This document shows, piece after piece, positions 264 to 52,181 of a DNA stretch of 64,000 nt. The translations under genes and the position numbers were made by a program. The notes under the pieces were generated by a model. It made no database searches. It was not told where the DNA came from and saw nothing but the letters and a program-made list of their open reading frames with translations. How positions within the stretch are numbered: position 1 is the first letter of the stretch; the number at the start of each line of letters is the position of its first letter. Origin of the DNA: an uncultured Francisellaceae bacterium (GTDB lineage: Bacteria > Pseudomonadota > Gammaproteobacteria > UBA6186 > Azoamicaceae); contig CAMFJH010000002.1 of assembly GCA_945956915.1 (NCBI GenBank), positions 33,842 to 97,841 on the forward strand. Direction: 5' to 3'.

Positions 264-483
264 AAAAATCCCCCCGCTAGCTTCGCTATCGACCCCCTTT
301 TGAAAAAGTGGGTAAAGAGCATTGATGTCCGCTACGCTACCATCAATGAGTTTTTTGTTTTTTTACATAAATAAAGTTAAAAACATCAAGAAAAGGTCAT
401 TTATGTAAGCGAAGCGCAACATAAATGTACATTACCCACTTTTTCAAAAGGGGGTCGCTGCCAAGGGCAGCGGGGGGATTTTT
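264..483. repeat. Inverted pair of a ~51-nt double-hairpin module bounding a 117-nt interior (MITE/REP-like element, copy 1)
   Basis: 264-315 and 433-483 are reverse complements, except for a 15-nt internal hairpin that differs between the arms. The same module recurs at 27071-27415. Confidence 0.75.
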
Positions 484-25266: not shown

Positions 25267-26405
25267 GTATGTTATTTCGTGCAGTACTTGAGAAATTAAT
25301 AGCTCTTTTTAACAGCTATGTACCTAGAGATAATGATGTGGGTAAAGCGAAAGCCGAAGAACGAAAGAAGATAGTAGATTTTTTATCAAAACTTACAGCC
25401 AGATGCACACCCTTATCCTGTGTAGACATAAGTACATGTATAAACTTTTTGTCAGCTGAAGTAGGTTTTTTGAAAGACATTAGAAAAAAATTTAAAGAAC
25501 AAAATTCTGCAGAAGATGAATTACCTGCAGCAACTTTAGATGGGTTTACCATGGCATCCATCAAAGTCTTAACGAATCTGTTTGATTATTGGGCGCAATC
25601 AGTATTATCTATTCGACATCAAAAAGAGAGTTTAGCCAAAAACTCACTTCCCGAAAATGCAAGCAGTATTTTGATAAAATCTTTGCAAAATGTCGAGGAA
25701 CAGGAACCCTTAGGGTTTTTACAAGTTCAATTAATTTTATTTATGATTGATGTAGATATACGTTTTGAATCTGATAAAGCATCTAAATCTAAGGTTGATA
25801 GGTTTTACAGTGGTTTTTCAAGCGTCCTTAATCTTACAAATTACAATCATACCGCAGAAGATAATTTAAAACCTGTAGTATATAAGCATTTAGTGAAAAT
25901 GAAAACACTATTGCCAACATCAAAAGGTGATGACGCTAAGTATATGAAATTTATTGATGATGCATTGATCGAAGCTTTAGGGTATGAAGCACAACAAAGT
26001 GGAGGTAAGCTAACACATTTGAAAGAATATTTAAATACAGTTAGTATAAGAATAGCTGATTTTCCATCATTAAAGAAATACAGAGAGAACGTAGTTAACA
26101 TGTGTGATGAGGTTAGAAGATGTAGCGAAGCTTTTGCTAAGGAGTTGGCAAATCAAGAGAAACCAGAAGAATCTAAGAGCGCTTCTATATCTGAAGAGTC
26201 AACAAAAACTTTAGAACCTGAAGTCACGTCTAGAAGCTCCTTATCTGAAACGTATGCGTCAGTGGTTGCACGTGGATCGACGAGCTCATCATATTCTCCA
26301 TCGGCTTCGCCATTTCAAATGATTCCCCACCCTACTCGAAATCCTTCAGTACTGGTATTAGAAGCAGAAACGACGGTCCATATATCAAACAGTAAACTTA
26401 GGTGA
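25263..26405 (+). CDS. Hypothetical 380-aa protein with a Ser/Thr-rich C-terminus, translationally coupled to folA and the DUF374 gene
   Basis: 4-nt overlaps at both ends (25263-25266 and 26402-26405). No recognisable domain. Confidence 0.6.
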   Translation: MSMLFRAVLEKLIALFNSYVPRDNDVGKAKAEERKKIVDFLSKLTARCTPLSCVDISTCINFLSAEVGFLKDIRKKFKEQNSAEDELPAATLDGFTMASIKVLTNLFDYWAQSVLSIRHQKESLAKNSLPENASSILIKSLQNVEEQEPLGFLQVQLILFMIDVDIRFESDKASKSKVDRFYSGFSSVLNLTNYNHTAEDNLKPVVYKHLVKMKTLLPTSKGDDAKYMKFIDDALIEALGYEAQQSGGKLTHLKEYLNTVSIRIADFPSLKKYRENVVNMCDEVRRCSEAFAKELANQEKPEESKSASISEESTKTLEPEVTSRSSLSETYASVVARGSTSSSYSPSASPFQMIPHPTRNPSVLVLEAETTVHISNSKLR

Positions 26406-27037
26406 AAAAGAGGATGAATAAATATCGATTGCTTGGCATTTTGGCTTATTATCTTACCTATTTATTATATAAAACCTTAAGAGTTGAGATAAAATTTGAT
26501 CCAGATTACGATGTGGCAACACAATATCTGGGCGCTTTTTGGCATGGTAAACAATTTTTACCGGTATTTGCCATGTCTAAGCATCAAACTAAACGTGCAG
26601 CATTAGTCAGTGCTTCTAAAGATGGAGAAATTTTAACAGCTTGGCTGGAAAAAATTGGCTATACCGTTATTCGCGGTTCTTCTAGACATCACAATACTCG
26701 AGCCTTAGCACAAATGATCAAAGCACTAAAAGCTGGATATGGTATAGGATACGGAATTGATGGACCCATAGGGCCTATCTATAAAGTCAAACCGGGAATG
26801 ACACACATGGCCAAAAAGTTGGGTTTAGAGATCTTACCTATGGGCACGGCTTTTAGCCGTAAATGGGTAATCCACAAAGCTTGGGATAAATATGAAATTC
26901 CTAAGCCTTTTTCTAAAGCCATTCTCTATATAGGCAAACCGCTGAAAATAGAAAAAGATGCAGATTTAGAACACAGCAATTTATTATTAGAAGAAAAAAT
27001 TCACGAAGCAGAAGCTAAAGCCGCTGCTTATTTGTAA
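26402..27037 (+). CDS. DUF374-family (lysophospholipid acyltransferase-like) protein, usually linked to Kdo transferase genes
   Basis: FWHGKQFLP...SASKDGEILTAWLEKIGYTVIRGSS...IDGPIGPIYKVKPG. Confidence 0.7.
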   Translation: MKKRMNKYRLLGILAYYLTYLLYKTLRVEIKFDPDYDVATQYLGAFWHGKQFLPVFAMSKHQTKRAALVSASKDGEILTAWLEKIGYTVIRGSSRHHNTRALAQMIKALKAGYGIGYGIDGPIGPIYKVKPGMTHMAKKLGLEILPMGTAFSRKWVIHKAWDKYEIPKPFSKAILYIGKPLKIEKDADLEHSNLLLEEKIHEAEAKAAAYL

Positions 27038-27070: not shown

Positions 27071-27415
27071 AAAATCCCCCCGGTGCTGTGCACCGACCCC
27101 CTTTTTCAAAGTGGGTTGTCACTCCGCATTGTGCTCTTCATGAACATTAATGACAAAATACTTTTAAGAATTTGTAATGAATGATTGATTTTTTTGTATC
27201 GCAACAACAATATAATCTAGGAAGTAAATAATCTCCTGTAATTTTTTATCTAATATAAGGGCACCATTGTTATATTTTAAGCTTTGGTTATTGAGCTAAA
27301 AAAGAAATTTACAGCTTCTTTAAAATATATGGTCTTTAACATTCATTAGAAGTATAATTCGGAGTGACAACCCACTTTGAAAAAGGGGGTCGGTGCACGG
27401 CACCGGGGGGATTTT
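27071..27415. repeat. Inverted pair of the ~55-nt double-hairpin module bounding a 233-nt interior (MITE/REP-like element, copy 2)
   Basis: 27071-27126 and 27360-27415 are reverse complements apart from one loop base. They share the C6 / hairpin / GACCCCC / A-T core / GTGGG architecture with 264-483. Confidence 0.75.
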
Positions 27416-27418
27416 AAC

Positions 27419-27763
27419 TTAAAGACGATTCTGATGTTTTTTATGCTCTGTTTGCGTATGATGTGCTTGATTCGGTTGTGTAGGTGAAACTGTGCTTGTA
27501 GTTGTGGTTTTAGTTTGGATGGGTGCTGCATTAACCGTATTCGTTTTTGATGTTGTAGTATTAGCTTTCTTTTTTTGCCAATCTTCTATTTTTTCTTTGA
27601 CATGATCAGCGCCTGCTTTGATTTTGGGTATAACAACATTGATTGTGAAATCTTTAGTGGTATGAAAAGCCTTTAGTAATTTTTCTTTAACAATGGGAGC
27701 GTATTCTTTTGTTTTATCGCTAATGTTGGTTGCGATGGTTTGCATTTTTTCTTTAGCGCTCAT
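27419..27763 (-). CDS. Hypothetical hydrophilic 114-aa protein (amphipathic N-terminal half, Thr-rich basic tail)
   Basis: ORF whose stop lies 4 nt from the palindromic module. Lies downstream on the same strand as the 72-aa ORF. Confidence 0.5.
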   Translation of the reverse strand: MSAKEKMQTIATNISDKTKEYAPIVKEKLLKAFHTTKDFTINVVIPKIKAGADHVKEKIEDWQKKKANTTTSKTNTVNAAPIQTKTTTTSTVSPTQPNQAHHTQTEHKKHQNRL

Positions 27764-50524: not shown

Positions 50525-50732
50525 AAATTTAACTTAAGTAATCCGGCTATCCTATGTTATTAAACCTTGTAAGCAAATCTTAGGTTATTTTTTAGGGTTA
50601 TGCAATCCTTTTATCTGTTTCAAATAGAAAGAGGTATTTGTTGATTAAAAAAGTATTTACCTTTTCATTCTTTTGATTTATGATTGGTCTTCGAACTTAG
50701 AAGCTATACAATTAAAGTGGTTGGAGATAGTT

Positions 50733-51395
50733 ATGAATAAAAAGTTAGTTAGTATTGTTATGTCAGCTGCTACTCTATTAAGTGGTGTGGCTTTTGCAGA
50801 TTTTGATCCACAATTTTATGTGGGTGCCGAAGTTCAAGCAGGTCATAAAAAAGGTGAAAAAAATGTTCCTGCAAAATTAGGCAAGACGCCTGTAACCCTT
50901 TATGGAAAATCTAAAAATGGTTCTGCACAGAGCCCACTCCATCATTCAGCAACTGGCGGAAGTTTGTTTGTAGGTTCTCGTGTGAATGAAAATTTTGGTG
51001 TGGAAATAGGGGCTTCTGCCTTAAGAACTGAAAAGAGTAAAAACATTAGTTTAAACAATAATGTTTTACCAGGTTCTGAAATCTCCATCAAAAATAGCAA
51101 TATTTATGCAGATGCCATGGGCTATTTACCCGTTGATTGCGCACTTGATTTGATTGGTTCAGTGGGTGTTGGCCAACTTTCTACTAAAATCAGTGGAAAA
51201 GCAGTATCATCAACAACCAATGCTAATGAAAAATTTTCAGGTAAATCAAGCAAAGCTGGAGTTCGTGCAGGTTTGGGTGCTCAATATAAAATCACCGATA
51301 ATCTCAGTACTCGTTTGATGGTACGCTACCAAAAAGGTAATAGAATGGTGAATAACACCATGTCTACTGCCCTTGGTATGTTTTATCAATTTTAA
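50733..51395 (+). CDS. Small beta-barrel outer membrane protein, paralogue 1
   Basis: Signal peptide MNKKLVSIVMSAATLLSGVAFA. Alternating beta pattern. C-terminal GMFYQF. GGAG RBS. Confidence 0.75.
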   Translation: MNKKLVSIVMSAATLLSGVAFADFDPQFYVGAEVQAGHKKGEKNVPAKLGKTPVTLYGKSKNGSAQSPLHHSATGGSLFVGSRVNENFGVEIGASALRTEKSKNISLNNNVLPGSEISIKNSNIYADAMGYLPVDCALDLIGSVGVGQLSTKISGKAVSSTTNANEKFSGKSSKAGVRAGLGAQYKITDNLSTRLMVRYQKGNRMVNNTMSTALGMFYQF

Positions 51396-51427
51396 TTAAA
51401 ATAAAATACTATTTTTCTTGTATAGCG

Positions 51428-51452
51428 AAGGGCCCTTAGGGGCCCTTTTTTT
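51428..51452 (+). terminator. Rho-independent terminator
   Basis: GGGCCC-TTAG-GGGCCC followed by T7. Confidence 0.75.
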
Positions 51453-51543
51453 GTAAATACTTTTTTATTTACCTTTTTATTTTTTTGAGTTATCATCGGC
51501 CTACATAAGTAGAAATTAGACAATAATATCATTGGAGATAGTT

Positions 51544-52122
51544 ATGAATAAAAAATTAGTTAGTGTTCTTGTTTCAGCTGCTACGCTATTAAGCGGTACA
51601 GCATTTGCGGATTTTGATCCACAATTTTATGTGGGTGCTGAAGCACAAGCAACGCATCTACATTTTAAAAATAAAAAAAATACGCTAAAGCTTGTAAAAA
51701 AAGCATGGTGGGGTGGCGGTGCATTCTTGGGTTCACGCTTTAATGAGAACCTGGGTGTTGAGCTGGGCTATGCTTTAATAGGTAAAAAAACTGCAACAAA
51801 TGCACAAAACACATTTAGAGCTAGCTCGAAGAGGAAAAATGCTTATTTTGATATCATGGGTTATTTGCCAATAGACTGTGCAATGGATTTAATTGCTTCT
51901 GTAGGGGCAGGGCATACCACAGTGCATAAAAAGTCAAAGTTCTGGCAGGGGAATACGTCTTGTCAAAATAAGGATTATTCGACTAAGGTTCGTGTGGGTG
52001 TAGGTGCGCAGTATAAAGTTACTGACAATATCGGTGCACGTCTTATGTTGAATTATCAACCGATTAAAGGCGAAGTGAAGTATTTGACCTCTGCTAGATT
52101 AGGTATGTTTTACCAATTTTAA
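51544..52122 (+). CDS. Small beta-barrel outer membrane protein, paralogue 2
   Basis: MNKKLVSVLVSAATLLSGTAFADFDPQFYVGAE... and a C-terminal GMFYQF. The ends are shared with paralogue 1 and the middle is divergent. Confidence 0.75.
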   Translation: MNKKLVSVLVSAATLLSGTAFADFDPQFYVGAEAQATHLHFKNKKNTLKLVKKAWWGGGAFLGSRFNENLGVELGYALIGKKTATNAQNTFRASSKRKNAYFDIMGYLPIDCAMDLIASVGAGHTTVHKKSKFWQGNTSCQNKDYSTKVRVGVGAQYKVTDNIGARLMLNYQPIKGEVKYLTSARLGMFYQF

Positions 52123-52156
52123 TAAGTTTAATACTAAAATTTTTCCTTCAATAAAA

Positions 52157-52181
52157 CAAAAGGGCCCCTAAGGGCCCTTTT
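52157..52181. terminator. Bidirectional Rho-independent terminator (OMP gene / hppA)
   Basis: AAAA-GGGCCC-CTAA-GGGCCC-TTTT between convergent genes. Confidence 0.7.

Follow-up and report, generated by a model that had tools for sequence, protein, structure and literature searches.

Positions 264 to 483 of the 64,000-nucleotide stretch analyzed here (hereafter, the window), which belongs to an uncultured Francisellaceae bacterium (GenBank assembly GCA_945956915.1, contig CAMFJH010000002.1, positions 33,842 to 97,841), are occupied by a gene-less, closed foldback module of 220 nt (copy 1), and a second module of this kind, 346 nt long (copy 2), is found at positions 27071-27416. Both window elements belong to a family of repeats that spans bacterial phyla, and the sequence of their arms is tightly and specifically coupled to genes encoding nuclease-like proteins of the DUF559 family. 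The explanation that we favor on balance, with somewhat better than even confidence, is that the feature at 264-483 is a non-autonomous, gene-less module that resembles BoxC and REPINs (doublets of repetitive extragenic palindromic (REP) sequences) and is genetically coupled to DUF559 nucleases.

The arms of this family have a common design that includes an outer C-run, AAATCCCCCC (GGGGGGATTT on the opposite arm), an optional small hairpin conserved in its fold alone, and an invariant inner hairpin, CCCCC-T4-5-N-A3-5-GGGGG, with the family form GACCCCC-TTTTTCAAA-GGGGGT. Formally, a family arm was defined by an outer run AAATC5-6, a linker with or without the small hairpin, and an inner hairpin C5-6-T/A loop-G5-6, and the arms in the window fit this definition. 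The left arm of copy 1, read in the initial annotation as AAAAATCCCCCC/GCTAGCTTCGCTATC/GACCCCC/TTTTGAAAAA/GTGGGTA (264-315), a reading that we verified, starts with the outer run AAAAATCCCCCC (264-275, on the forward strand, as are all arm parts below), which pairs with 472-483, and continues with the small hairpin GCTAGC-TTC-GCTATC (276-290), containing a single C.T mismatch at the second pair, and the inner hairpin GA-CCCCC-TTTTGAAAAA-GTGGG-T (291-313), in which the loop is flipped compared to the consensus TTTTTCAAA. The right arm consists of the inner hairpin ACCCAC-TTTTTCAAAA-GGGGG-TC (434-456), the perfect small hairpin GCTGCC-AAG-GGCAGC (457-471; GCTGCC-CTT-GGCAGC on the opposite strand) and the outer run GGGGGGATTTTT (472-483). 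Both small hairpins had been correctly recognized from the letters alone, as had the identity of the arms outside the 15-nt segment that these hairpins occupy: the two 52-nt arms, 264-315 and the reverse complement of 432-483, match at 45 of the 52 positions, and all seven mismatches are within this segment. The 22-nt core occurs twice in the window compared to 0.00 occurrences expected from 100 shuffles, and the predicted fold of copy 1 is one long hairpin of -110.4 kcal/mol (z = -12.5). The flipped loop TTTTGAAAAA is present on both arms of copy 1, whereas copy 2 and the family consensus have TTTTTCAAA (293-312 vs 27097-27115), a difference consistent with inversion of the loop followed by copying onto the other arm.

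A scan of one representative genome per species with the exact pattern ATCCCCCC-N9-19-GACCCCCTTTT detected at least 116 loci (individual loci are denoted by L numbers below), approximately 110 of which display features that were not specified in the pattern, namely, a palindromic gap equivalent to the small hairpin and a T-run followed by N-A2-3-GGGGG(T), which closes a second hairpin. The hosts among the matches listed include the cyanobacteria Nostoc (many species), Spirulina, Chroococcidiopsis and Stigonema; Coxiellaceae, other low-GC gammaproteobacterial metagenome-assembled genomes (MAGs) and Francisellaceae; Lysobacter, Pseudoxanthomonas and Thermomonas (Xanthomonadales), Cellvibrio, Thiospirillum and Glaesserella; and Betaproteobacteria. 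Because several of these hosts (Nostoc, Spirulina, Glaesserella, Pseudoxanthomonas, Thiospirillum and Cellvibrio) are cultured isolates, the spread of the family is not a binning artefact; single MAGs hold at least 9-12 family loci. A BLAST search of the arms against plasmids returned nothing relevant, and a scan of viral contigs yielded a single match; therefore, the element is not phage-borne. A literature search with the sequence strings retrieved unrelated primer matches only. The search of other genomes and relatives proposed in the initial annotation, thus, produced at least 110 loci, and, given also the absence of copy 2 from the orthologous site in relatives and the covariation in the small hairpin (both described below), these are clearly not the sole copies of a local, terminator-like palindrome.

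The units of the family occur in four arrangements: singly; as closed modules, in which AAATC6 is paired with G6ATTT around the small hairpin and one or two inner hairpins (e.g., L027, L112 and the Spirulina loci); as inverted pairs flanking 50-250 nt of unrelated AT-rich DNA (both window copies, L043, L055, L047 and L078); and as tandem arrays (L049, L084, L088 and L031). They are located at the 3' ends of genes and in gaps between convergent genes, where they often directly adjoin the stop codon as TAAATCCCCCC. The Nostoc module is embedded in a genuine miniature inverted-repeat transposable element (MITE) that has the terminal inverted repeat (TIR) CAATACGGTTCGGTTAA and 8-11-bp target duplications, and the module itself bears further nested insertions. 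Such nesting in a MITE with CAATACGGTTCGGTTAA TIRs was observed in the Nostocales loci L035, L042, L046, L053, L071 and L013, and at an orthologous Nostoc locus, L080 contains an extra nested insert of ~45 nt that L045, L060 and L092 do not have. In L031 (Spirulina sp. CCNP1310), one unit is followed by a tandem 34-nt repeat that consists of the hairpin CCCCCCTTTTCAAGGGGGT and the spacer AGTTTTCTTAAA. The motif GATCCCCCC-GCCTGCGGC-GACCCCC-TTTTTAAGGGGG nested in the Nostoc MITEs resembles the small dispersed repeats (SDR) of Nostoc in general character. These very small nested hairpin repeats were reportedly described by Elhai et al. in 2008, in a study that is said not to have been extended to proteobacteria or DUF559.

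The coupling to DUF559 is apparent from the gene neighborhoods. All-against-all clustering of the open reading frames (ORFs) within 2.5 kb of the units (117 sources) revealed one recurrent ORF family, and in three unrelated genomes, those of L049 (Cellvibrio), L066 (Cellvibrionaceae) and L116 (the gammaproteobacterial MAG JABDBA01), the motif immediately flanks its members. The proteins of ~118 aa encoded by these ORFs belong to DUF559 (PF04480; Pfam E-value about 1e-35), and the closest solved structure is the endonuclease-like PDB 3HRL (E-value 4e-16); DUF559 is a Vsr-like PD-(D/E)XK family within the Vsr/DUF559 clade (PMC3424549). The cassettes have the layout hairpin-linker-GGGGGGATTT, gene, AAATCCCCCC-linker-hairpin, with the upstream and downstream ends denoted here L-type and R-type, respectively. 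In L116, the upstream end reads CCCCC-TTTGAAAAA-GGGGG-C, small hairpin, GGGGGGATTT-GCG-ATG, and the downstream end reads TAA-ATCCCCCC, small hairpin, GA-CCCCC-TTTTTCAAA-GGGGG. The flanking sequences of the window arms exactly match the cassette ends of L116 and L129, and all four window arms match both cassette-end patterns: the outer run AAAAATCCCCCC of copy 1 is the gene-proximal part of the R-type end, the inner hairpin at 434-456 is part of the L-type end, and GGGGGGATTTTT is also found a short distance 5' of the ATG in the cassettes. In JABDBA01, the small hairpin GCCTCGCTTGGCGCTCGGC is present at both ends of the cassette and is the same as the small hairpin of the dispersed units L029, L033, L050, L063, L113 and L114.

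The association holds when approached from the protein side, with 80 metagenomic DUF559 loci that were retrieved by peptide patterns of the three proteins alone and that vary in GC content from 32 to 65% and in protein identity to the query from 53 to 66%. The upstream end (C-run hairpin, linker, G-run ATT) was found within 110 nt of the start in 60 of 79 loci (76%), the downstream end (AAT C-run, linker, hairpin) at or just past the stop in 63 of 76 (83%), and both ends in 49 of 75; the background of these patterns in the same loci is 0.12 per kb per strand, which corresponds to an expectation of ~0.013 per 110 nt. Conservation of the DNA ends exceeds that of the DUF559 protein, and the layout does not change where the runs are replaced by the variants CCTCCC/GGGAGG. 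The linker is usually 1-4 nt long, mostly TAA, TAG or TGA at the downstream end, and is a hairpin in L129, L197 and L207, which shows that the junction can, but need not, accommodate the small hairpin as an insert. Closed modules account for about 30% of the cassette ends. A Pseudanabaena plasmid carries a DUF559 gene flanked by closed modules of the same layout with another loop (AATTCTG), and the DUF559 copy on a Synechocystis plasmid is similar. Two further ideas on the cassette ends were abandoned in full or in large part. Co-variation of the linkers and loops between the two ends of one cassette was largely withdrawn (identity of 0.85 within a copy vs 0.815 between copies, with the downstream linkers mostly TAA, TAG or TGA), and a sigma-70 promoter in the upstream end, suggested by TTGAAA in the loop, was dropped upon inspection by eye, there being no adequate -10 element, and insertion of the small hairpin breaking the spacing. 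The titles and abstract openings of the searched publications that mention DUF559 contain no link to BoxC or other repeats, and the connection between this protein family and the repeats appears to be new.

A related configuration exists in Escherichia coli. The K-12 gene ycjD encodes a DUF559 protein that is 40% identical to the L116 protein, and it adjoins fabI (envM), beside which, presumably, BoxC was first described; a literature search for BoxC and envM produced nothing usable. The stop codon of ycjD, TGA, is located between CACCCTCTCCC and a G-rich run, and ~150 nt downstream is CCCCTCGCCCCTCTGGGGAGAGGGTTAGGGTGAGGGG, which on the other strand reads as an outer C-run, TAA and an inner hairpin; on one strand, this repeat consists of the outer C-rich run CCCCTCACCC, TAA and the inner hairpin CCCTCTCCCC-AGA-GGGGCGAGGGG. 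The 61-nt stretch next to ycjD is a dispersed repeat in all 5426 complete E. coli genomes, in each of which it can be detected at a median of 16 and at most 29 places. It is probably BoxC, with which it is consistent in size and copy number (56 bp, 32-33 copies; PMC2267715, PMC5172473), these two properties and not the BoxC consensus being the terms of the comparison. Like the family described here, BoxC comprises short, C/G-run-rich, extragenic, imperfectly palindromic dispersed repeats, and the ycjD-adjacent repeat shares the layout AAATCCCCCC-linker-CCCCC..GGGGG and adjoins the DUF559 gene of the genome; however, its runs are CCCTCTCCC/GGGTGAGGG rather than C6/G6, it is not alignable with the family by BLAST, and no small-hairpin arm was seen. 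BoxC is present in tens of copies per genome; in the 64 kb of the window, two elements of the family were seen. The interval between sapF and fabI is a variable hotspot, and the ycjD region is present in 3346 of the 5426 E. coli genomes. In K-12 (L211, 1351000-1351830), both a partial copy of the 3' end of ycjD and the BoxC-like repeat are located downstream of this gene. A strain without ycjD (L212) was considered as a clean empty site and rejected, given that an island with resistance-nodulation-division (RND) efflux and TetR genes occupies the site.

The small hairpin of the arms is under structural constraint such that the fold is kept and the sequence is not. When 72 distinct small-hairpin sequences of 9-19 nt were paired outside-in, 83% of the predicted positions formed standard pairs, compared to a mean of 44% and a maximum of 51% in shuffled sequences, so that the proposal, made from the two arms of copy 1, that the fold persists while the stem sequence changes extends to other genomes. 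Several Watson-Crick pair types are found at positions 2-7, the first pair is nearly always G-C, and the commonest loop is TGC. Among 12 units that have a small hairpin of 13 nt and were aligned without gaps, four of the five hairpin pairs changed on both sides and 93% of the cells pair, whereas the inner hairpin and flanks are invariant; the covariation score was reached in none of 500 shuffles, and no slid register came close. This covariation supports the selection on the fold that had been suggested in the initial annotation. Certain mismatches are recurrent: the second pair of the small hairpin is often C.T, T.C or C.A (21 of the 72), and the G-run of the inner hairpin is often GTGGG instead of GGGGG, so that distant taxa have a C.T mismatch at one and the same position of the stem (308-312 and 27111-27115 in the window; L022, L041, L044, L047, L049, L066, L091, L093, L100 and L106). 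These mismatches could be recognition features for a mismatch-type nuclease.

Copy 2 is informative on presence and absence in relatives. Its left arm (27071-27116) is AAAATCCCCCC / GGTGC-TGT-GCACC / GA-CCCCC-TTTTTCAAA-GTGGG-T and its right arm (27370-27416) is ACCCAC-TTTGAAAAA-GGGGG-TC / GGTGC-ACG-GCACC / GGGGGGATTTTA, so that, read arm-wise, the small hairpins of the two arms are GGTGC-TGT-GCACC and GGTGC-CGT-GCACC, respectively. The arms extend over 108 nt with 85% complementarity, the z-score of the fold is -16.7, and the only coding potential is a mechanical ORF of 61 aa (27346-27531, minus strand) that clips the right arm. The two elements contain the only four arm copies in the window. 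Copy 2 is located in the gap between a DUF374 gene (26402-27037) and a convergent ORF of 114 aa (27419-27763, minus strand), within a gene order, folA - 358/380-aa ORF - DUF374 - convergent small ORF - zf-CHCC - waaF - waaC, that is conserved in relatives. In two of these (DUF374 with 83% and 76% amino acid identity), the 346-nt element is completely missing, the convergent genes being 26 nt from each other or overlapping, and a third relative (91% identity), which has another downstream gene, also does not contain it. Copy 2 was either inserted here or lost in the relatives. The empty sites called for in the initial annotation, thus, exist for copy 2, although no target-site duplication could be defined, and the exact junction is unreadable given how far the relatives that have empty sites have diverged (76-83% aa identity).

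Copy 1 is bordered by the 3' end of rlmB, with the stop codon at 136-138, on one side and by an AlbA_2/HATPase_c_4 gene (666-2006) on the other. The AT-rich interior of copy 1 (314-433) is partly palindromic, with the hairpins CATTGATG..CATCAATG (320-348, separated by N13) and TTACATAAAT..ATTTATGTAA present as initially annotated, and has no similarity to other loci or to DUF559. Neither an ORF of at least 40 aa in 138-629 nor a tRNA or tmRNA was found, in accord with the initial assessment. An extra C5 run, ACCCCCAGAT, at 255-263, 4 nt 5' of the left tip, may be a leftover of another end. The AlbA_2 gene was dropped as an anchor for an empty site of copy 1, given that it is not syntenic in relatives; elsewhere (L118-L120), the gene combining AlbA_2 (Schlafen-like) and HATPase_c_4 adjoins a gene for a PIF1-type helicase or AbiEii, and these neighbors, together with the lack of synteny, suggest a defense-island or mobile gene. 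Five interleaved copies of TGGTGCAAT(T) at 592-652, directly upstream of this gene, look like an operator array for its own helix-turn-helix-type product. The chromosome is low in GC (about 37%) and of Gram-negative type, with rlmB, ETF-QO/etfBA, waaF and waaC among the genes near the elements. An identical 4.3-kb metagenome contig is available (ENA ERZ12289969), and the nearest relatives at the protein level are uncultured Gammaproteobacteria of the Legionellales or Francisellaceae type.

Taken with these data, we infer that the modules are non-autonomous relatives of the DUF559 cassette, in the same manner as REPINs relate to REP-associated tyrosine transposases (RAYTs) or BoxC to ycjD. A broader proposal, which we put forward tentatively and hold at somewhat less than even odds, is that DUF559 genes with C-run/G-run nested-palindrome ends comprise an unrecognized selfish or domesticated element, a nuclease-based counterpart of RAYT-REPIN that crosses phyla and whose gene-less offspring would include BoxC of E. 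coli, the nested repeats of Nostoc and the two window modules; the nuclease would recognize GGGGGGATTT/AAATCCCCCC or extruded hairpins and drive copying. In the mechanism inferred for the spread of the modules, the DUF559 nuclease would recognize the invariant C- and G-runs, possibly as the palindromic junction of GGGGGGATTT and AAATCCCCCC or as extruded hairpins, and, once it had cleaved or nicked the DNA, the ends would be copied to new sites, mostly at the 3' ends of genes, by either templated repair or synthesis primed by a hairpin. The same process could turn solo ends into long foldbacks like both window copies: conjecturally, the window type, with the R-type end first, then the interior and the L-type end, arose when a solo end was made palindromic by hairpin-primed synthesis, which fits because the complementarity of the arms runs on into the non-conserved AT-rich DNA. 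The small hairpin might act as the third arm of the junction and be retained, on single strands, as a local hairpin; it might diverge fast, possibly by template switching within quasi-palindromes. The cassettes also resemble free-standing homing endonuclease genes (the Vsr-like EDxHD family, I-Bth0305I) in that a small nuclease gene of the Vsr/DUF559 clade lies within the palindrome formed by GGGGGGATTT and AAATCCCCCC, which could be the interrupted target of the nuclease itself, and in the patchy distribution of the ycjD region (3346 of 5426 E. coli genomes), but differ in that there is no intron or intein context and in the many gene-less copies, which are untypical of homing endonuclease genes.

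Several observations weigh against the coupling of the modules to DUF559 nucleases as we interpret it. The 64-kb window contains no DUF559 gene. The similarity between the two ends of one cassette is only slightly above that between different cassettes (0.85 vs 0.815), so that copy-specific concerted evolution is weak, and the 80 loci represent one DUF559 subfamily because they are closest to the seeds that were found through the motif. In the window elements, the R-type end comes first and the L-type end last (R...L), and the outer runs lie at the extremes; in the cassettes, the order is the opposite, L-gene-R, and the outer runs point toward the gene. The window elements are, therefore, not simple internal-deletion derivatives. 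The L-short-R form expected of such derivatives was seen in L041, L049 and L082. No direct repeat is common to the flanks of either window copy, and the A/T-rich palindromic tips blur the boundaries. Finally, the association alone also fits modules that serve as signals for gene expression or termination and were spread by another route. A candidate autonomous copy, L115, was rejected: its two units, 1.6 kb apart, enclose only coiled-coil and toxin-antitoxin-like ORFs.

Among the alternative explanations, a host-serving signal, i.e., a bidirectional terminator or a stabilizer of mRNA 3' ends with an incidental or historical link to DUF559, appears unlikely. Under this scenario, one would expect the observed position of the units, nearly always at gene 3' ends or between convergent genes, 0-40 nt from stop codons, and the outline of the closed module, with an A-tract, a GC stem and a T-tract (AAAAATCCCCCC...GGGGGGATTTTT), is that of a terminator; a terminator scan made one weak call, at 455-473 plus the tail GGGGATTTTT. 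However, the scan called nothing at copy 2, a stem that encloses 220-350 nt does not resemble those of known intrinsic terminators, single units have no T-tract past the last hairpin, and neither the cross-phylum identity of the flanks nor the ends upstream of DUF559 starts would be explained. A terminator or stabilizer role of the inserted copies is possible and compatible with the coupling to DUF559. Structured non-coding RNA genes or cis-regulatory RNAs, another option raised initially, are a very improbable explanation: the folds are predicted to be very stable and the helix of the small hairpin covaries, but a search of the window and seven loci against Rfam 15 gave no matches at the gathering thresholds, only generic long hairpins of the miRNA-precursor type at 20-30% of these thresholds; both strands fold equally, as a DNA palindrome would; the interior differs between the copies; and the orientation relative to genes is mixed.

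The initial suggestion of an element akin to MITEs, REPs or bacterial interspersed mosaic elements came closest, with the additions of a dispersed family in multiple genomes, an insertion polymorphism and a protein-coding relative with the same ends, and with the correction that a classical MITE or REP does not fit. A conventional MITE, that is, a deletion derivative of an insertion sequence whose DDE transposase reads the ~46-nt arms as TIRs, is quite unlikely. Like Correia/NEMIS, Nezha and Coxiella QMITE1/2, the window elements are small and ORF-less, with long terminal inverted repeats that form long hairpins near or overlapping gene ends; two copies are present in the window; copy 2 is missing at the orthologous site in relatives; and the Nostoc module resides inside a genuine MITE with TIR CAATACGGTTCGGTTAA and 8-11-bp duplications. 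Nevertheless, this module is found in the interior of the MITE rather than at its ends, no transposase-like ORF recurs within 2.5 kb of the units at the at least 116 loci, target duplication is not visible at the window copies, many units are single rather than inverted pairs, and the only gene with the same ends is DUF559, with the ends in the opposite, inside-out order. Moreover, a transposase that binds double-stranded DNA leaves unexplained a self-complementary small hairpin with compensatory changes inside invariant ends. The Coxiella QMITE elements were rejected as a match because they are different elements, and QMITE2 is defined by a GTAG REP (PMC5896051) that is absent from the window arms. 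Similarly, mobilization of a REP/REPIN-type element by a RAYT, a domesticated IS200-like transposase of the Y1 HUH type whose substrates are single-stranded hairpins, can be given only a slim chance. The small hairpin with conserved flanks and a variable stem and the non-autonomous inverted pairs at extragenic sites near gene ends are REPIN-like, and, as in RAYT-REPIN, the JABDBA01 gene is flanked by the same hairpin sequences that are dispersed in that genome (the only genome compared). However, no GTAG/CTAC is found beside the hairpin, the flanks being ATCCCCCC and GACCCCC; no recurrent small ORF other than DUF559 adjoins the units (ORFs within 2.5 kb, 117 sources), and the partner is, accordingly, a PD-(D/E)XK (Vsr-like) protein and not a RAYT; and the motif is nearly identical across phyla, whereas REP families are usually species-specific.

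The window contains additional repeats. At 40610-40798, there are ~20 tandem copies of a 9-nt unit (GAAGCTAAA / GAAGCTAAT / GAAGCCAAT), which, if read in frame, would encode an E-A-K/N repeat. Between 35209 and 41868, segmental duplications (180-300 nt, 80-99% identity; 35209/36088/41048, 36463/41402 and 37807/41686) point to a recently duplicated gene family. Inverted copies of the GC-rich hairpin AAGGGCCCTTAGGGGCCCTT, 93% complementary, are located at 51428-51455 and 52152-52179 and adjoin direct duplications of 143 nt and 59 nt at 50654-51674; this small repeat is unrelated to the module linked to DUF559.

To our knowledge, neither an origin nor a protein partner has been established for short dispersed palindromes such as BoxC, although they have been listed in E. 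coli for three decades, and we know of no established function for DUF559, a large family, despite the solved structure. Should the link between the modules and DUF559 be functional, this family would gain a testable role, and an origin would be found for BoxC-like repeats and, possibly, for the small nested repeats of cyanobacteria; there would then be a second partnership of a nuclease and a repeat beside RAYT-REPIN, with a different enzyme fold. Should the link be related only to expression, the family would still be a striking case of a non-coding sequence that is nearly unchanged across phyla and includes a hairpin kept by its fold alone.

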